A stretch of 6,250 nucleotides of DNA from a virus, in IMG/VR virus record IMGVR_UViG_3300045988_001136, positions 1 to 6,250 of that record; one strand, written 5' to 3'. A model generated the notes under the pieces. It saw only the letters and a list, made by a program, of their open reading frames with translations, was not told the DNA's origin and did not search any database. Numbering within the stretch: position 1 is the first letter of the stretch; the number at the start of each line of letters is the position of its first letter. The position numbers were made by a program, and so were the translations under genes. Shown piece after piece: positions 1-6,250 of the stretch.

Positions 1-77
1 ACGTCTCCTGTTCCTTTCTTTGCTACAGATGTTTCTTCATCTAATACACTACCTGTTGGTTCTACTCTCCGTGTTGA
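1..77. repeat. Terminal redundancy copy 1 (identical to 6174..6250); marks circular genome closure
   Basis: Base-by-base comparison shows 77/77 identity with the window end. Confidence 0.97.
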
Positions 78-897
78 TTTGACGTCTTTACAATCTAAAT
101 TTACAGTTCTTGCCCTTCGTCAAGCTGAAGCCCTTCAGCGTTGGAAAGAAATCAGTCAGTCTGGTGATAGTGACTACCGCGAACAGATTCGTAAACATTT
201 TGGTGTGAATTTGCCTCAATCTCTTTCCAATATGTGTACTTATATTGGTGGTATTTCCCGTAACCTTGATATCAGTGAGGTTGTAAATAATAACCTTGCT
301 ACTGAAGATACTACTGCTGTTATTGCTGGTAAAGGTGTCGGTGCCGGTAATGGTTCTTTCACTTATACTACCAATGAGCACTGTGTTGTTATGTGTATTT
401 ATCATGCTGTTCCTCTGCTTGATTATACAATTACCGGTCAGGATGGTCAGCTTTTGGTAACTGATGCTGAGTCTCTCCCGATTCCTGAGTTTGATAATAT
501 CGGTATGGAAGTTCTTCCTATGACGCAAATTTTCAATTCTCCTAAAGCCTCTATTGTCAATTTGTTTAATGCAGGTTATAATCCCCGTTATTTTAATTGG
601 AAAACGAAGCTCGATGTTGTTAACGGAGCTTTTACTACTACTCTTAAGTCTTGGGTTTCTCCGGTTACCGCATCTCTTCTTTCCGGATGGTTCGGCTTTG
701 GTTATAATGAAGGCGATGTTAATAAGAATAATAAGGTTGTTTTGAATTATAAGTTCTTTAAGGTTAATCCTTCTGTACTTGACCCTATTTTTGGAGTTAG
801 TGCGGATTCTACTTGGGATACTGACCAGCTTTTGGTTAATTCCTATATCGGTTGCTATGTTGCTCGTAATTTATCTCGTGATGGTGTACCTTACTAA
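1..897 (+). CDS. VP1: Major capsid protein (VP1 / F-like), C-terminal 298 codons. The 5' end is cut by the window start and is continuous with 5226..6173 across the circular junction.
   Basis: Frame 1 is open from base 1 with no stop before TAA at 895..897. The TTG start at 79 in the ORF track is only the first start-like codon. Position 1 equals 6174, which is in frame with the ATG at 5226 (948 nt, 316 codons, upstream). T-ending codon bias is strong. The sequence (..LALRQAEALQRWKEISQSG.., ..YNPRYFNWK..) looks like the large capsid proteins of Bacteroidota-associated microviruses as I remember them. Confidence 0.93.
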   Translation, partial: TSPVPFFATDVSSSNTLPVGSTLRVDLTSLQSKFTVLALRQAEALQRWKEISQSGDSDYREQIRKHFGVNLPQSLSNMCTYIGGISRNLDISEVVNNNLATEDTTAVIAGKGVGAGNGSFTYTTNEHCVVMCIYHAVPLLDYTITGQDGQLLVTDAESLPIPEFDNIGMEVLPMTQIFNSPKASIVNLFNAGYNPRYFNWKTKLDVVNGAFTTTLKSWVSPVTASLLSGWFGFGYNEGDVNKNNKVVLNYKFFKVNPSVLDPIFGVSADSTWDTDQLLVNSYIGCYVARNLSRDGVPY

Positions 898-911
898 TTT
901 TGTTTTTGATT

Positions 912-1394
912 ATGATAGGAAAGTTTAATTCTTTGGACTGTCTGGAACAGGGTTCTGGACTTACCCCTAATGTTGAGCCTGATGCTTTTGCTGTTGCTCC
1001 TCAATTTGATTCTACGGAGGAACTTCGTGTAGAGATTGATGATACTGACGAAACTCGTCCGGTTCGTTATACCTCTGACGTTCGTTTAATTCTTCATAAT
1101 AAGGATTTAGCCTCTCGTGCTGGGCTTTCTGTTGCTTCCAAATTTGGTCAAAGTAAACAGACTGTATCTCAGATTCAACAGCTTATGGATTTAATGTCTG
1201 ATTCTGACCTTTTGGCAACGGTTCGTTCTCGATATGTTCAGTCTCCTTCTGAAATTATTGCCTGGTCAAAAGAACTTATTGCTCGTGCTGAAGCTCTTAA
1301 TCATGAGGCTCAGATTTTGGTTGATGCTGAAACTGCTAAACAAGAGGCAGAACAAGCGGCTGCTGCTCCCGCTGATGCTGCTTCCTCTGAATAA
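912..1394 (+). CDS. Small acidic protein (160 aa) between the capsid and pilot genes; putative internal scaffolding protein (VP3-like). The function is inferred from position only.
   Basis: ATG at 912 lies in frame with the TTG at 900 listed in the track. T3 codon bias matches the other genes. The TAA stop (1392..1394) overlaps the VP2 ATG by 1 nt (TAATG), which suggests translational coupling. The protein is acidic with an Ala/Gln/Glu-rich C-terminal tail. I recognise no diagnostic motif, so coding confidence is high but functional confidence is about 0.4. Confidence 0.75.
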   Translation: MIGKFNSLDCLEQGSGLTPNVEPDAFAVAPQFDSTEELRVEIDDTDETRPVRYTSDVRLILHNKDLASRAGLSVASKFGQSKQTVSQIQQLMDLMSDSDLLATVRSRYVQSPSEIIAWSKELIARAEALNHEAQILVDAETAKQEAEQAAAAPADAASSE

Positions 1395-2461
1395 TGGGTC
1401 TTCTTGGTTCAATCGCTGGTGGTCTCCTTGGTATTGGTTCTTCTGCTATTCAGAATTCACAGAATAGACAGAATGTCCGGGAGACCAACCAGATGAACTA
1501 TAGGATAAATCAGATGAACAATCAGTTTAATGAGCGTATGGCTATGCAGCAGCGCGATTTCCAGGAAAATATGTGGAATAAGGAGAATGAGTATAATACT
1601 GCCTCCGCGCAACGTCAACGCCTTGAAGAAGCTGGTTTAAATCCTTATCTGATGATGAACGGTGGTTCTGCTGGTACTGCTCAGTCTGTTGGTGCTGGTG
1701 CTTCTGCCTCTTCTGCCGGTTCTGCTGTTATGCAGCCTTTTCAGGCTGATTATTCAGGCATTAGTTCTTCTATTGGTAATATCTTTCAGTATGAGCTTAT
1801 GCAATCTCAAAAGTCTCAATTGCAAGGTGCTACGCAACTTGCTGATGCCAAGGCTATGGAGACTCTTTCTAATATTGATTGGGGTAAGCTTACCGATGAA
1901 ACTCGTGATTATTTGAAGTCCACCGGATTGGCTCGTGCTCGGCTTGGTTATGCCAAGGAACAGCAGGAAGTTAGCAACATGGCTATGACAGGTCTTGTTC
2001 TGCGCGCCCAGCATTCTGGTATGCTTCTTGATAATGAAGCTAAAACTGTTATGAATAAGTATCTTGACCAGCAACAGCAGCTTGACTTGAATGTCAAGGC
2101 TGCGGATTATTACCAGCGTATGGCTTCTGGTCATCTTTCTTATGCTGAAGCTAAAAAGGCTATAGCTGAGGAAGCTTTGGCTGCTGCTCGTGCGCGTGGT
2201 CAGAATATTGCTAATAAGGTTGCGGATCGTATTGCCGAGTCTCAAATTGCTGCCAATATTGCAGCTAATGAGTCTACTGCTGCTTTTCATAAAGAGGAAC
2301 TCAGATTAGGTCTTCCTCAAGATAATGCGCGTAGTAAAAATATTGAGGAATGGTACCGTTCTCGTAATGAAGGTAAGAGATATAAGTATTATGATACTGA
2401 TAAGGCAGTTCATTATGGTACTGCTATTGGTAATACTGTAGGAAACTTTATGCCCTGGTAG
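1394..2461 (+). CDS. VP2: Minor capsid / DNA pilot protein (VP2, H-like), 355 aa
   Basis: The N-terminus is Gly-rich and hydrophobic (MGLLGSIAGGLLGIGSS). The block AQRQRLEEAGLNPYLMM is characteristic of microvirus VP2 proteins. A Gly/Ala/Ser low-complexity linker follows, then a long Ala/Gln/Glu-rich helical region compatible with a coiled-coil pilot tube. The gene ends at TAG 2459..2461. Confidence 0.9.
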   Translation: MGLLGSIAGGLLGIGSSAIQNSQNRQNVRETNQMNYRINQMNNQFNERMAMQQRDFQENMWNKENEYNTASAQRQRLEEAGLNPYLMMNGGSAGTAQSVGAGASASSAGSAVMQPFQADYSGISSSIGNIFQYELMQSQKSQLQGATQLADAKAMETLSNIDWGKLTDETRDYLKSTGLARARLGYAKEQQEVSNMAMTGLVLRAQHSGMLLDNEAKTVMNKYLDQQQQLDLNVKAADYYQRMASGHLSYAEAKKAIAEEALAAARARGQNIANKVADRIAESQIAANIAANESTAAFHKEELRLGLPQDNARSKNIEEWYRSRNEGKRYKYYDTDKAVHYGTAIGNTVGNFMPW

Positions 2462-2486
2462 TATTTTTTTTGTTTATTGTGTGTTT

Positions 2487-2520
2487 ACCCGGCTCGTAGT
2501 GATACGCGTCGGGTTTTGTT
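2487..2520 (+). terminator. Rho-independent-terminator-like hairpin downstream of VP2
   Basis: ACCCGGCTCGT (2487..2497) pairs with ACGCGTCGGGT (2504..2514): an 11-bp stem with one G-T wobble and one mismatch, and a 6-nt loop AGTGAT. It is followed directly by TTTGTTG, and T2514 extends this into a TTTT run. It sits 26 nt after the last stop codon of the gene string. Confidence 0.6.
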
Positions 2521-2539
2521 GCTTGTAGTAACTTTTGGC

Positions 2540-2558
2540 AACCGCGCGAAGCGTGGTT
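2540..2558 (+). other. Hairpin with an exact d(GCGAAGC) mini-hairpin core
   Basis: In AACCGCGC-GAA-GCGTGGTT, 2540..2547 pairs with 2551..2558 (8 bp including one G-T), with a GAA triloop at 2548..2550. The core GCGAAGC is 2546..2552. Confidence 0.7.
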
Positions 2559-2741
2559 ATACACCCCCTGAATTCCGGGAGACTCTGTCGACTGAAATCA
2601 GAGCCGTTAGGCTATAGTACTGCCTTCCTTGAAGCTTGATGCTTGCAACGCGTAAGCAATTTCCCGGAGAGCTTCTCTCTGCCGTCGCTGCTATACCTCT
2701 AAAATATTATTTGACGAAGTCTACATGAGTTTGCCCGAAGG

Positions 2742-2766
2742 GAAAGCTATTTACCTCATAGCTTTC
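2742..2766 (+). other. Perfect 9-bp stem / 7-nt loop hairpin (GAAAGCTAT-TTACCTC-ATAGCTTTC)
   Basis: 2742..2750 is the exact reverse complement of 2758..2766, and the loop TTACCTC is 2751..2757. It lies in non-coding DNA. Confidence 0.75.
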
Positions 2767-2847
2767 AGTCTCCCCCTTGTCTTATATACGCAAACTCACA
2801 GACCAGCCCGTCACCCATATAGCTTATTGTTTATTTATGTTAATAAT

Positions 2848-2859
2848 ATATGCGCATAT
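2848..2859. repeat. 12-bp perfect palindrome ATATGCGCATAT abutting or overlapping the -33 promoter element
   Basis: The sequence ATATGCGCATAT equals its own reverse complement. Its last base is the first T of the TTTG -33 box (2859..2862). Confidence 0.8.
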
Positions 2860-2891
2860 TTGTCTTTTTCAAATTTTCATTTATATCTTTG
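2859..2891 (+). promoter_or_regulatory. Bacteroidota-type (sigma-ABfr-like) promoter: -33 TTTG and -7 TAnnTTTG
   Basis: TTTG at 2859..2862 is separated by a 21-nt spacer from TATCTTTG at 2884..2891, which matches the published Bacteroides consensus TTTG / TAnnTTTG. It lies about 43 nt upstream of the first ATG (2934) of a seven-gene, same-strand string that runs round the circle to the terminator at 2487. Confidence 0.55.
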
Positions 2892-2933
2892 CATTGTTTT
2901 TAAAATCAATGTATAATTAAAATTTCAAGTGTT

Positions 2934-3107
2934 ATGGAAAAGTATTATTTGTGTTCTGTTCAATCAAAGGTTAATCCTAATCAGAATGAAACCATTCTTG
3001 TTCCGGTTGATGAAGTCTCTGAATTTGTTTCTACTAATCTTCGTCCGGACTGCGTGCTTATTATTTCTCATTGTTCAACTTTTAAAGCTATCCCTAATGA
3101 AAAGTGA
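2934..3107 (+). CDS. Hypothetical protein, 57 aa (MEKYYLCSVQSKVNPNQNETILVPVDEVSEFVSTNLRPDCVLIISHCSTFKAIPNEK); first gene after the promoter
   Basis: ATG at 2934, TGA at 3105..3107. It is absent from the ORF track, probably because it falls below the length cut-off. Its third codon positions are overwhelmingly T, like the confirmed genes, whereas the overlapping track ORF 2929..3186 is read in the +1 frame across this stretch. I recognise no motif. Confidence 0.6.
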   Translation: MEKYYLCSVQSKVNPNQNETILVPVDEVSEFVSTNLRPDCVLIISHCSTFKAIPNEK

Positions 3108-3186
3108 AACTAAATCTAAAATCTGGTCTGCTATTATTGCAGCTGCTGTCAGTCTTCTTACGTCTATTGCCCAAATTTTTTCGTAA
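3097..3186 (+). CDS. 29-aa single-pass membrane peptide (MKSETKSKIWSAIIAAAVSLLTSIAQIFS); candidate holin-like or lysis-accessory peptide
   Basis: ATG at 3097 overlaps the upstream ORF by 11 nt, and TAA is at 3184..3186, 3 nt before the peptidase ATG. The N-terminus is charged (KSETKSK), followed by an uninterrupted stretch of about 20 hydrophobic residues. T3 codon bias is retained. This is the only part of track ORF 2929..3186 that looks genuinely coding. Confidence 0.55.
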   Translation: MKSETKSKIWSAIIAAAVSLLTSIAQIFS

Positions 3187-3189
3187 ATC

Positions 3190-3498
3190 ATGAACCCTGA
3201 ATTAATGAAATTTGTTGAGTGGCTTCTCTGCCGGAATATTCATTTTACTGTCACTTCAGCTCTTCGTACCAAGAAGCAGAATGAGGCATGTAATGGTTCT
3301 GATGATTCTCAACATTTGTCTGGAGATGCTATTGATTTAAAACCTTTGGAACTTTCAGTTGACTCTTTAGTCTCTGTAATTAAAGGTTCTCCTTTCAAGT
3401 TTGACCAACTTATAAAGTATCGGACTTTTGTTCATGTTTCCTTTGCTCGTGTTCGCAAGCCTCGTCAAATGGAACTTAATTTTACTGATAGAAAATGA
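3190..3498 (+). CDS. Peptidase M15-family (VanY / D-Ala-D-Ala carboxypeptidase-like) zinc peptidoglycan hydrolase, 102 aa; putative endolysin
   Basis: The motif string TSALRTKKQN..SQHLSGDAID..FVHVS fits the M15 signature (S-x-x-R, then S-x-H-x-x-G-x-A-x-D, i.e. H-x6-D, then a distal His). The predicted Zn ligands are H42 (3313..3315), D49 (3334..3336) and H82 (3433..3435). There is no obvious signal peptide. The TGA stop overlaps the VP4 ATG (ATGA at 3495..3498). Confidence 0.85.
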   Translation: MNPELMKFVEWLLCRNIHFTVTSALRTKKQNEACNGSDDSQHLSGDAIDLKPLELSVDSLVSVIKGSPFKFDQLIKYRTFVHVSFARVRKPRQMELNFTDRK

Positions 3499-5198
3499 TT
3501 ACCAAGGAATTGCAGAATAAATTAGTGACTCGTTGTCAGCATCCTCGTACGGTTGTTAACAAGTATACGCATGAGTCTGTTCTTGTGTCTTGTGGTTCTT
3601 GTCCTTCTTGTCTTCTTCGTCGTTCCGGAATTCAGACAAATTTGCTTACTACTTATTCTGCTCAATTCCGTTATGTTTATTTTGTTACTCTTACTTATGC
3701 TCCTCGTTTCCTTCCTACTTTGGAGGTTTCGATTATTGAAACTTGCACGGACGATATTGCGGACGTGCCCTGTGTTCCCGATATTAATGACTTGGACGCT
3801 GGTGACCCTAATACTTATTTGTTTGGTTTTCGTAGCGTTCCTCGTTCCGCTTCTGTTAAGTTGAAAAATTCTACCGTCGAACGCACTTTTAAGGACCCTG
3901 AAGTTCGGTTTACTTATGCTATGAAACCCAAGGAGCTTATTTCTATTTTTGGAAAGATTAAGCATAATGTTCCCAATAGGATTCCTTATATTTGTAATCG
4001 TGATCTTGATTTGTTTTTGAAACGTTTAAGAAGTTATTACCCAGATGAAAAATTACGTTACTACGCTGTATCAGAATTCTGCCCTACCAGTTTCCGCCCG
4101 CATTGGCATTTGTTATTGTTTTCCAATTCCGAGCGATTCTCGCAAACTGTTTGTGAAAATGTATCTAAAGCTTGGTCTTACGGACGTTATGATGCGTCAT
4201 TGTCGAGAGGATTCGCAGCTCCGTATGTTGCGTCGTATGTTAATAGTTTTGTCGCTTTACCCGACTTTTATACTCAAATGCCAAAAGTGGTGCGACCTAA
4301 ATCCTTCCATTCCATTGGATTTACAGAATCAAATCTCTTTCCTCGAAAGGTACGAATTGCCGAAATTGATGAAGTTGCCGATAAGTGCCTTAATGGAGTC
4401 CGCGTTGAGCGCAATGGATATTTTCATACAATTAAACCTACTTGGCCGTATCTCCTTCGATTATTCCCCCGATTTTCGGACCCTATTCGTAAACTTCCAT
4501 CGAGTATTTACCAATTATTATATTCTGCGTTCACTGCGCCCCAACGAGTCGTTCACAGCGGATGTGCAGATTTAACTTGTGACCCTTTTAACGAGAATAC
4601 TCCATTTAAACAAAGTATTTTGTCTTTTTGTAAACAGTATTTAAATTATGTAGATAATTATGGAAAAAGAAATGACGAGCAAAATATTCTTGCACCTCAA
4701 GAACGTTTACCGCATAGTGATATTCTCATTCTTTCTGAATGTCGTTTGTACGATGGTGTTGATTTGGAAGTTACTCATCGTCTCTCCCGCGTATACCGCT
4801 TTTTCCTCGGAATTGCGAAATTTATTCGAACATATTCAACAGACGGATGTTCAGAATTTTTCTGGTCCAGCGGCACTTCTGGAGGAGAGCTCTTTGGACG
4901 AGAAAGGTTCCTGCGCATTATCTCCGAGAAAATAGTTAATTTTTGGAATCGTTATGATTACAACCGTCTTGTAGATTTCTATCAAACTTTGGAAGATTCC
5001 AATGATAAGGATTTGGTAGACTTTGAGCTTCGTAATTATACCTTCCGTTATAATAGATCTGTTTGCGATAAGGTAAAACCTTACCATGAATTACCTCTTG
5101 TTCGTCGTTTGGCTGCCGCTTCATTGATGAAATGTCGGGATAAGGTCAAACACAAGAAGGTTAATGATTCGTTTGGTATTTTCTCTTATCATGACTGA
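3495..5198 (+). CDS. VP4: Rolling-circle replication initiation protein (VP4 / A-like HUH endonuclease), 567 aa
   Basis: There is an N-terminal Cys cluster (C14, then CGSCPSC at aa 32..38). RCR motif I is FVTLTY (3681..3698). Motif II (HUH) is RPHWHLLLF, with HWH at 4101..4109. Motif III is YVASYVNS (4224..4247), with two Tyr spaced Y-x-x-x-Y, very close to the phiX174 A protein YVAKYVNK as I recall it. Confidence 0.93.
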   Translation: MITKELQNKLVTRCQHPRTVVNKYTHESVLVSCGSCPSCLLRRSGIQTNLLTTYSAQFRYVYFVTLTYAPRFLPTLEVSIIETCTDDIADVPCVPDINDLDAGDPNTYLFGFRSVPRSASVKLKNSTVERTFKDPEVRFTYAMKPKELISIFGKIKHNVPNRIPYICNRDLDLFLKRLRSYYPDEKLRYYAVSEFCPTSFRPHWHLLLFSNSERFSQTVCENVSKAWSYGRYDASLSRGFAAPYVASYVNSFVALPDFYTQMPKVVRPKSFHSIGFTESNLFPRKVRIAEIDEVADKCLNGVRVERNGYFHTIKPTWPYLLRLFPRFSDPIRKLPSSIYQLLYSAFTAPQRVVHSGCADLTCDPFNENTPFKQSILSFCKQYLNYVDNYGKRNDEQNILAPQERLPHSDILILSECRLYDGVDLEVTHRLSRVYRFFLGIAKFIRTYSTDGCSEFFWSSGTSGGELFGRERFLRIISEKIVNFWNRYDYNRLVDFYQTLEDSNDKDLVDFELRNYTFRYNRSVCDKVKPYHELPLVRRLAAASLMKCRDKVKHKKVNDSFGIFSYHD

Positions 5199-5225
5199 TA
5201 ATGTTTAATTTTAAAATGTTTTTTT

Positions 5226-6250
5226 ATGGCTTCTTACACTGGAATGTCCAATCTTCAAAATCATCCTCACCGTTCTGGATTTGATATTGGACGTAAAAAT
5301 GCGTTTACTGCGAAAGTTGGTGAGCTTCTCCCGGTTTATTGGGATATTTCTATGCCTGGTGATAAGTATAAGCTCAACGTTGAGTATTTCACCCGTACTC
5401 AGCCCGTTGAAACTTCTGCTTATACCCGTTTACGTGAATACTTTGATTTCTATGCTGTTCCGTTACGTCTTCTTTGGAAGTCTGCACCTTCCGTATTGAC
5501 CCAAATGCAGGATATCAATCAGATTCAAGCGTTGTCTTTTACTCAAAACTTGTCTCTTGGTTCTTATCTACCTTCTATTACTTTGAGTCGGTTGTCCACT
5601 TCTTTGTTTTATTTGAACTCTAAAGCCGACCCTGGTTCTTCTGCTGCTCAGACAAACATGTTTGGCTTTTACCGTGCTGATATGGCTTTTAAGCTTCTTA
5701 GTTATCTTGGTTATGGAAACTTTATTAAAGCTGCTCCTTCTTCCGATAATCGTTGGTGGTCTACAACTGTAAAGTCTTCTGCCTCGTCTTCATATACTCA
5801 GCTGTATATTCAGAATAATTATGTAAACATTTTCCCTATTCTTGCTTATCAGAAAATTTACCAGGATTTTTTCCGTTGGTCTCAATGGGAAAGAGCTAAT
5901 CCTTCTTCTTATAATGTTGATTATTATACAGGAACCTCTCCCGATATAGTGGCCTCTTTCCCTTCTTCTACTTCTGATTATTGGAAATCTGATACAATGT
6001 TTGACCTCAAATATTGTAATTGGAACAAAGATATGTTAATGGGTGTTCTCCCGAATTCTCAATTTGGTGATGTTGCTGTTATTGATATTGATAATTCCGG
6101 TAAGCCTGATGTTTTTTTGGGACTTGGTAATTCCAATAGCAAGGTAGGTGTAGCTTCTGCTGTTACTTCTAAAACGTCTCCTGTTCCTTTCTTTGCTACA
6201 GATGTTTCTTCATCTAATACACTACCTGTTGGTTCTACTCTCCGTGTTGA
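5226..6250 (+). CDS. VP1: Major capsid protein (VP1 / F-like), N-terminal part. It is open at the window end and continues at position 1 through the circular junction.
   Basis: From the ATG at 5226 I read the frame by hand with no stop through 6250: MASYTGMSNLQNHPHRSGFDIGRKNAFTAKVGELLPVYWDISMPGDKYKLNVEYFTRTQPVETSAYTRLREYFDFYAVPLRLLWK... This is the canonical microvirus capsid N-terminus. It is missing from the ORF track because no stop lies inside the window. Confidence 0.93.
   Translation, partial: MASYTGMSNLQNHPHRSGFDIGRKNAFTAKVGELLPVYWDISMPGDKYKLNVEYFTRTQPVETSAYTRLREYFDFYAVPLRLLWKSAPSVLTQMQDINQIQALSFTQNLSLGSYLPSITLSRLSTSLFYLNSKADPGSSAAQTNMFGFYRADMAFKLLSYLGYGNFIKAAPSSDNRWWSTTVKSSASSSYTQLYIQNNYVNIFPILAYQKIYQDFFRWSQWERANPSSYNVDYYTGTSPDIVASFPSSTSDYWKSDTMFDLKYCNWNKDMLMGVLPNSQFGDVAVIDIDNSGKPDVFLGLGNSNSKVGVASAVTSKTSPVPFFATDVSSSNTLPVGSTLRV
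6174..6250. repeat. Terminal redundancy copy 2 (identical to 1..77); unit genome length 6,173 nt
   Basis: Base-by-base comparison shows 77/77 identity with the window start. The repeat is internal to the VP1 reading frame and in phase. Confidence 0.97.

Follow-up and report, generated by a model that had tools for sequence, protein, structure and literature searches.

A highly conserved 29-residue membrane peptide and a short M15 peptidase: a possible lysis module of a Bacteroides-infecting microvirus

How do microviruses outside the phiX174 group lyse their hosts? Their mode of lysis is not established, though these phages rank among the most common in the mammalian gut. The question is raised by a 6,250-nucleotide (nt) stretch of viral DNA, IMG/VR record IMGVR_UViG_3300045988_001136, positions 1 to 6,250 (hereafter the window), in which three small genes precede the replication gene, Rep. 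They encode a soluble protein (ORF57), a 29-amino-acid (aa) membrane peptide and an M15 peptidase. What is new here is a concrete candidate for the membrane component of lysis: the peptide is the most conserved product of the genome and is kept when the enzyme is lost. We propose that ORF57, the peptide and the peptidase, most likely co-transcribed with Rep, are the lysis module of a Bacteroides-infecting (Alpavirinae-type) microvirus, a reading to which we give a probability of about 0.5. The three genes are the following.

2934-3107, plus strand: ORF57, a conserved, soluble, acidic protein of 57 aa; the last 11 nt overlap the start of the peptide gene.
3097-3186, plus strand: single-pass membrane peptide of 29 aa, MKSETKSKIWSAIIAAAVSLLTSIAQIFS (ATG 3097, TAA 3184-3186).
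3190-3498, plus strand: Peptidase_M15_3 of 102 aa, a LAS-fold zinc peptidoglycan peptidase in short form (ATG 3190, TGA 3496-3498).

The stop codon of the peptide is separated from the start of the peptidase by 3 nt, and the start of Rep at position 3495 overlaps the peptidase stop as ATGA. An earlier reading made from the sequence alone, referred to here as the original prediction, had given the coordinates of the 29-aa and 102-aa open reading frames (ORFs), the gap and the overlap correctly. It had described a two-component cassette; both genes are real, but ORF57, a conserved member of the same block, had been missed.

Is the 29-aa peptide a real gene product? Its charged N-terminus, MKSETKSK, which is the sole charged stretch, is followed by a 20-residue predicted transmembrane helix (residues 9-28, maximum Kyte-Doolittle hydropathy 1.88), in agreement with the charged end and transmembrane-length segment predicted originally; the C-terminal residues ...AQIFS are the end of the helix. 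One face of the helix is polar or small, with S11, A15, S19 and S23 at i+4 spacing, plus T22 and Q26. Our sample of the closest relatives, clade A, comprises 36 IMG/VR genomes retrieved through the peptidase (72-86% peptidase identity). The peptide is intact and almost invariant in 35 of them, and its mean identity of 96.5% over the 36 relatives is the highest of any product of the genome (79-84% for ORF57, peptidase, Rep, scaffold, pilot and capsid). The ratio of nonsynonymous to synonymous diversity (pN/pS) of the clade A peptide is 0.10 in its own frame; the remaining two frames of this DNA give 1.9 and 1.4, and the peptidase gives 0.24. In a second, more distant group, clade B, the peptide has a pN/pS of 0.12 at normal synonymous diversity (pS 0.42), and the peptidase one of 0.51. 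The ORF was intact in 100 of 101 genomes retrieved through the peptidase, two apparent peptide-less exceptions being contig-end artefacts, and purifying selection on it in relatives, which the original prediction had proposed as a check, is borne out.

We considered the alternative that a T-rich genome produced the 29-codon ORF by chance, or that its conservation stems from a DNA or RNA element. T-rich microvirus strands do yield many hydrophobic off-frame ORFs, and synonymous diversity in clade A is lower in the peptide (pS 0.24) than in the peptidase (pS 0.49). However, over the two clades pN/pS lies at 0.10-0.12 in the named frame and at 1.3 to 24 in the two other frames, synonymous diversity in clade B is normal, the start and stop codons are conserved among relatives, and the in-frame extension upstream is interrupted by stops in several of them. 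Because the selection signal is frame-specific, this highly improbable explanation is effectively refuted and, on the comparative evidence, the 29-aa peptide is a genuine protein-coding gene. The exact peptide sequence occurs in public protein collections solely as 'hypothetical protein [Microviridae sp.]'. Two other frames were rejected: a longer, 85-aa version of the peptide ORF (GTG 2929), owing to the stops carried by its upstream extension in several relatives, and an alternative-frame 29-aa ORF (GTG 3104-3193), with a pN/pS above 1.3.

The only disrupted peptide among the 101 genomes is that of genome L011 (3040-3336). Codon 4 has mutated there from GAA to TAA, and a single missense change and a duplication of 8 nt (TCTTCTTA) are also present. 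The genes for capsid, scaffold, pilot, peptidase and Rep appear intact in this genome. It may represent a natural knockout or a copy in decay, or else co-infecting relatives may complement it.

The identity of the downstream gene is clearer. The 102-aa protein matches Pfam PF08291 Peptidase_M15_3 (E=4.5e-11, 43.3 bits with a cut-off of 23.2) and PHROG 894, 'endolysin' (E=1.4e-14). It covers only positions 43-108 of the 108 in the Pfam model, the C-terminal two thirds; typical M15_3 members have 130-150 aa, and about 45 of their N-terminal residues are missing from the 102-aa form. In an alignment of 19 relatives, both short (~100 aa) and of normal length (130-150 aa), with identities as low as 28%, S23, R26, N31, G36, S40, H42, G45, A47 and D49 are invariant and with them the motif S40-x-H42-x-x-G45-x-A47-x-D49, while Q73, H82 and R92 are near-invariant (H82 at least 90% conserved). 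The predicted zinc ligands H42, D49 and H82 are intact in the window. The protein is thus, judged by homology, an M15 peptidase with an intact active-site signature, and the earlier M15 call, including metal ligands kept in relatives, held.

Structural comparisons are consistent with this assignment. A search of the PDB with the single peptidase sequence gave no match; a profile of the peptidase family recovered the Zn D-Ala-D-Ala peptidase 1lbu (E=1.1e-7) and, more weakly, L-alanyl-D-glutamate peptidases of the T5/RB49 type, with alignments spanning the H-x6-D motif (SRHMYGHAAD of 1lbu, SKHITGDAID of the T5-type peptidase). The AlphaFold2 model (pLDDT 86) has 1lbu as its top Foldseek match (probability 1.00, E=3e-3), followed by LdcB, LysB4, ChiX, Ply500 and hedgehog N-domains, all at TM-scores of only ~0.5. 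The enzyme is small (11.8 kDa) and has no hydrophobic segment (maximum Kyte-Doolittle 0.88 over 19 residues), as expected from the original claim that it lacks a signal peptide; residues 3-14 form a confidently modelled helix within the globular fold. Hydropathy and the model revealed no transmembrane, signal-anchor-release (SAR) or export signal. Homologues fall into 1482 clusters at E<=1e-3; the best 120 of these have 97-102 aa and lie mostly on ~6-kb contigs or shorter fragments. A peptidase search of a genome contigs collection gave no match.

How firmly are the two genes linked? A degenerate DNA pattern of the peptide core, searched in IMG/VR, identified 63 clade A contigs, every one of them microvirus-sized and with a 101-105-aa peptidase gene directly downstream of the peptide (63/63), mostly after a 3-nt gap. 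From the peptidase side, the peptide locus lies upstream in 36 of 36 clade A genomes, L011 being the one in which the ORF is not intact. The arrangement extends beyond clade A: a homologous peptide also precedes the peptidase in clade B, whose peptidase is ~45-55% and whose Rep is only 27-30% identical to that of the window, and in a third small group, clade C. The clade B peptide (27 aa, MKSNNIWKIVIGAVSAALGYILNAIGL) overlaps the peptidase start by ATGA. It aligns with the clade A peptide and that of clade C (MSTENNKKTNWITAVISAIVAALTSLLSNLA) along the common pattern IW..(I/V)I(A/G)A....L..I, at lengths of 27-31 aa. Sequence comparison thus indicates that the peptide-peptidase arrangement is older than clade A.

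Between clades A and B (e.g. the window and genome L056), Reps are 27-30% and peptidases ~50% identical, while the peptides and ORF57 and its clade B counterpart, ORF64, are still alignable. The small-gene block would appear either to evolve more slowly than Rep or to have been exchanged between lineages.

Since the frames of the peptide and the peptidase match in the window (TAA ATC ATG), stop-codon read-through to a signal-anchored 133-aa fusion was considered. It was rejected on account of relatives with spacers of 13, 16, 32 or 56 nt, tandem in-frame stops or a frame-shifted ATGA overlap. In genomes L001, L002, L005, L010 and L024, the spacer is expanded by short CGTAA-like repeats (e.g. 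tcgtaattgtaatcgtaatcgtaagct), giving several in-frame stops.

What could such a pair do? In the lysis-module reading, the peptide would insert into the inner membrane with its N-terminus inside, self-associate through the small-residue stripe S11-A15-S19-S23 and, at a critical concentration, permeabilise or depolarise the membrane. The lesion would let the cytoplasmic, signal-less zinc peptidase reach the murein and cut its peptide cross-links, and the cell would burst. The peptide would then be the core, ancestral membrane-acting effector and the peptidase a frequent accessory endolysin placed between the peptide and Rep. Membrane insertion, oligomerisation, the formation and size of a hole, enzyme release, timing, translational coupling, the promoter and any role of ORF57 are steps that we infer for this locus.

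Several observations favour this reading. The peptide is a real gene under purifying selection, its adjacency to the peptidase is conserved in both directions in clade A, and clades B and C also have a homologous peptide ahead of the peptidase despite the distance of their Reps (27-30% identical to that of the window). The peptidase has neither a transmembrane nor a SAR segment, and the helix at its N-terminus belongs to the globular fold. Holins are small proteins with at least one transmembrane helix whose genes adjoin an endolysin gene; the peptide has one predicted helix, and its gene adjoins that of the peptidase. The best family matches of the peptide variants, all sub-threshold, are to holins (phrog_443, E=0.011-0.13; phrog_785, E=0.13; Pfam Phage_holin_3_3, E=0.033 and 14.8 bits with a cut-off of 28.4).

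Known cassettes offer a parallel. Homologues of the peptidase in tailed phages of Burkholderia, Stenotrophomonas and Xanthomonas (36-42% identical) are annotated as endolysins. In KS9 (gp22-gp23-Rz/Rz1) and Siara, the homologous endolysin domain (36-39% identity over residues 21-96) is encoded beside holins and spanins, with the gene for the small membrane protein directly adjacent and on the same strand, as in the window. However, the holins of KS9 and Siara have 104-124 aa compared with the 29 of the peptide, their endolysins (~146-149 aa) possess an N-terminal segment that the window peptidase lacks, spanins are present there and none was found in the window, and the microviral peptide, unlike these cassettes, occurs without the enzyme too. 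The holin-endolysin pair of the original prediction therefore stands as far as the tight, conserved adjacency (63/63 in clade A) and the KS9 and Siara analogues are concerned, and falls short in that the peptide has no charged tail and its matches to holins are sub-threshold.

Peptidases of this M15_3 family have been described in comparable phages, 11 human-associated Alpavirinae and Gokushovirinae, with a proposed endolysin role, and 5 of the 11 genes adjoin an unknown ORF (Roux et al. 2012, PMC3394797); peptidases have also been named among lysis-associated accessory genes (Kirchberger et al. 2022, PMC9239249). The statement in the original prediction that M15 peptidases occur in a few metagenomic microviruses was thus right, and the gene is indeed free-standing, but gene and endolysin proposal had already been published in 2012 (PMC3394797; also PMC9239249). 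The accessible parts of both papers do not describe the 27-31-aa peptide, its conservation or its persistence independent of the peptidase. Our literature searches found no paper on the small peptide or tying such a peptide to lysis, and those on a microvirus holin or a 'smallest holin' returned nothing relevant. As far as we could find, the peptidase is already known, and the mini-peptide, its strict pairing in clade A and its independence in the sister clade are apparently undescribed.

An experimental precedent comes from the microvirus Ebor, whose peptidoglycan hydrolase Gp7 is enzymatically active and present only in trace in virions, and which also encodes Gp1, a 45-aa membrane protein with no function assigned (PMC11980548). 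Like the window, Ebor combines a wall hydrolase, there shown to be active by experiment, with a small predicted membrane protein. It differs in belonging to another subfamily, infecting an alphaproteobacterial host, having a 146-aa enzyme and in that Gp1 has not been linked to lysis; the likeness is one of description, an M15 relationship not being established. By analogy, an active hydrolase found only in trace in virions would favour a role in lysis over one at entry, and Ebor Gp7 and the tailed-phage homologues are indirect evidence that the window peptidase may be an endolysin acting at the end of infection.

Other microviruses with long M15 enzymes also carry 26-30-aa one-helix ORFs beside them, namely MG945328, MG945336 and Dulem virus 264. 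In the first two, from pig faeces, ORFs of 29-30 aa (MTKEQLNKISNALCALISAVCAALSYFFS; L225 5404-5493 and L226 5727-5819) overlap, at its 3' end, the gene of a 131-aa M15 peptidase and resemble the window peptide in length and ending (...FFS and ...IFS); exchange of this region among distant microviruses has been reported (Kirchberger et al. 2022, PMC9239249). The 26-aa ORF of Dulem virus 264 lies between the peptidase and Rep. A search of IMG/VR with the MG945328-type peptidase gave no match.

Does the peptide depend on the enzyme? A pattern search for the clade B peptide yielded 100 genomes, 10 of them without the downstream peptidase motif, one of these having a variant motif. In the other nine, the peptide is directly followed by Rep and ORF64 is present; tblastn finds no peptidase anywhere in these nine genomes. 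In a second survey, of 80 Rep relatives of one peptidase-less genome, the peptide pattern was present in 77 and recognisable by eye in a further two (L347, whose N-terminus is longer, and L041, without an ATG start), and the peptidase motif was present in 68. In a simple neighbour-joining tree of Rep, all but one of the peptidase-less genomes form a single clade within the peptidase-bearing ones, and the remaining genome stands apart, which indicates that the peptidase was gained or lost at least twice. The peptide of the peptidase-less genomes is under the same selection as elsewhere (pN/pS 0.12, pS 0.42). It must therefore work without a phage enzyme and is not simply a dedicated holin; the suggestion in the original prediction that it is the dedicated partner of the peptidase does not survive the nine or more clade B genomes that keep it alone. 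Its retention further implies that the peptide and ORF57/64 form the core unit, into which the peptidase was inserted between peptide and Rep. By these genome comparisons the peptidase is an accessory gene that most genomes of the lineage carry but that can be lost, in agreement with the published view of microviral peptidases as horizontally acquired and mobile between lineages (PMC3394797; PMC9239249).

One of the 80 Rep relatives, L351, has the sole degenerate peptide of this set, ~100 nt upstream of Rep at 3198: two Gly residues of the helix are replaced by Asp, the ATG start is missing and a stop occurs early. The peptidase is absent. This genome may have lost both peptide and peptidase. 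In a more distant lineage (L369 3235-3633 and L370 3789-4187; Rep 33% identical), no peptidase was found in the inspected region upstream of Rep. Ahead of the ORF57 homologue there lies a one-helix protein of 65 aa, whose tail is rich in Ser/Thr and which has a Cys just past the helix (...ALYIQSCTAS...); this protein could be a lipoprotein or holin-like.

Taken together with this retention under unchanged selection, in at least nine genomes by tblastn and up to 12 of the 80 by motif, a number of points weigh against the lysis-module reading. The peptide shows no significant similarity to any holin family in Pfam or PHROG, does not have the hydrophilic, charged C-terminal domain typical of holins and, in the peptidase-less clade B genomes, does not depend on a partner endolysin as a holin would; its conservation is far above what is usual for holins, and no characterised holin known to us is as small as its 29 aa. 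L011 is otherwise intact and has a broken peptide gene, and several microviruses with longer M15 peptidases show no adjoining small membrane ORF. Nor is there a spanin-like gene, in accordance with the original prediction: a regular-expression search on both strands for a lipobox following a hydrophobic N-terminal stretch returned no ORF. Finally, for this lineage the proposal draws on sequences and structural models.

If the peptide can act without the enzyme, it might be a self-sufficient lysis protein like E of phiX174, its helix blocking the synthesis or export of murein precursors (MraY, MurJ or lipid-carrier recycling) and the peptidase speeding lysis or freeing it from growth. E, of 91 aa and overprinted in gene D, needs P21 and its C-terminal domain and lyses alone without a muralytic enzyme. 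Microviruses are the classic users of single-gene lysis, the peptide is under the same selection in genomes without the peptidase, which thus have no muralytic enzyme either, and residues are conserved along the whole helix (96.5% versus 79-84% for capsid and Rep), a degree of conservation more in keeping with a specific contact between proteins than with generic hole formation. On the other hand, the peptide gene is free-standing save for the 11-nt overlap rather than embedded, the peptide contains no proline that could correspond to P21 and lacks a C-terminal domain, the window genome encodes a peptidase, the clade A peptide never occurs without one (63/63), and a 20-residue helix with a Ser/Ala/Thr/Gln stripe equally resembles a self-assembling channel. 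We therefore consider an E-like inhibitor unlikely.

A second alternative is a membrane role unrelated to lysis, such as modulation of burst size as by K, superinfection exclusion, or anchoring of replication or assembly together with ORF57; the peptidase would then reach the wall in another way or act from the virion at entry. The conserved unit of ORF57/64 and peptide exists without the peptidase and lies directly upstream of Rep, phiX174 encodes in K a small, non-essential membrane protein, a genome with a broken peptide gene exists (L011), and the Ebor hydrolase was detected in virions. Yet it was there merely in trace, no other lysis candidate is visible in the 6.2-kb genome, and tight coupling to a signal-less wall hydrolase resembles lysis cassettes. 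This alternative, too, seems improbable to us.

Small membrane proteins of known systems provide further comparisons. E and K of phiX174 are, like the peptide, small one-helix microvirus membrane proteins, with no sequence similarity to it. The pinholin S21-68 of phage 21 is a small protein of 68 aa with two transmembrane helices and a SAR endolysin as its partner; its pore-lining helix bears a small-residue, glycine-zipper-like stripe comparable to S11-A15-S19-S23, but the phage 21 endolysin exports itself, whereas the microviral peptidase has no N-terminal SAR segment. TisB (29 aa) and Hok are chromosomal and plasmid type I toxins under antisense RNA control that depolarise the inner membrane. 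They share the size class and architecture of the peptide (a short charged end and one amphipathic transmembrane helix); no homology was detected and, to our knowledge, these toxins are not known to release proteins.

We also put forward, tentatively and with considerable doubt, that in Bacteroides-infecting microviruses the 27-31-aa peptide alone brings about lysis, which would make it the smallest known phage lysis protein. It would act either as a minimal holin that can pass a 12-kDa enzyme and that works with host autolysins when the phage enzyme is absent, or as a transmembrane inhibitor of a conserved step of cell-wall synthesis. In the first case, it would set a lower size limit for a holin; in the second, it would point to an antibiotic-like target in Bacteroides. 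Either way, a peptide that is the lysis effector would supply the lysis gene that has long been missing for a very abundant group of phages in the gut. As relatives exist as Bacteroides prophages, an experimental system may be within reach.

What does the third gene of the block contribute? ORF57 is present in 36 of 36 clade A relatives (mean identity 79%) and has 450 database homologues, all labelled hypothetical; every row inspected was on a microvirus-sized contig or a shorter fragment. It has no hydrophobic segment (Kyte-Doolittle maximum 0.75) and is without a match in Pfam and PHROGs. Its AlphaFold2 model (pLDDT 84) has a beta-beta-alpha-beta fold, which gave no PDB match with E below 1. 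ORF64 of clade B is its homologue in position and sequence, with the same 11-nt overlap with the peptide start, and the counterpart in L369 and L370 is a 62-aa homologue (ORF62). Fusions of ORF57 with the peptide were rejected: database entries of 80-89 aa are N-terminal extensions from upstream starts. One further feature lies upstream.

2859-2891, plus strand: possible Bacteroides-type promoter, TTTG ... TAnnTTTG, 43 nt upstream of ORF57.

The pattern TTTG-N17-23-TAnnTTTG, which we take to be the Bacteroides promoter consensus, has a single match in the genome and at least one match in 64 of 200 shuffled sequences, so that it is not significant alone; its location in front of the ORF57-peptide-peptidase-Rep block makes it suggestive.

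The first 77 bases of the window recur exactly at its end (1-77 = 6174-6250), indicating that it is a complete circular genome of 6173 nt. All genes are on the plus strand; a 470-nt non-coding stretch is followed by four tightly packed genes, namely ORF57, the peptide, the peptidase and Rep. The ORFs beyond the ORF57-peptide-peptidase group are those for capsid, scaffold, pilot and Rep.

5226 across the junction to 897, plus strand: VP1 major capsid protein, 614 aa.
900-1394, plus strand: 164-aa ORF, at a position annotated 'internal scaffolding protein' in GenBank relatives.
1394-2461, plus strand: DNA pilot protein, 355 aa.
3495-5198, plus strand: Rep (VP4), Pfam REP_ORF2-G2P, PHROG 942.

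The 164-aa ORF had no significant Pfam or PHROG match, and Rfam and tRNA scans of the window gave none. The closest records in GenBank come from faecal microviruses (Dulem virus 236, Dulem virus 257 and bajarodmic viruses) at ~82-85% nucleotide identity; in the two relatives inspected, the peptidase is annotated 'peptidase' and ORF57 'hypothetical protein', and the peptide ORF is unannotated.

Which host does the phage infect? A relative with a 79% identical peptidase sits, partly in tandem, beside gyrA in a chromosome whose GyrA is 94-98% identical to that of Bacteroides genomes, so that the host group is taken to be the Gram-negative Bacteroides, as expected for Alpavirinae-type microviruses (PMC3091885). 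In this Bacteroides chromosome, the tandem-integrated close relative (L104 9331-20309, L105 and L106) lies downstream of gyrA and a TPR gene, and the prophage junctions have a common 23-bp core, ATATTAAACATTCTGATGATATT. The best match of the window to this core is 16/23 and the corresponding region is ~230 nt shorter, which suggests that the window genome may not integrate at the gyrA site. Between the pilot gene and ORF57, the relatively G+C-rich non-coding region 2462-2830 is ~86% identical to the corresponding region of a prophage relative. As single-stranded DNA it folds far better than shuffled sequences (z = -3.5; 0/100 shuffles as good) into several stable hairpins, and it may be an origin of complementary-strand synthesis or a packaging signal.

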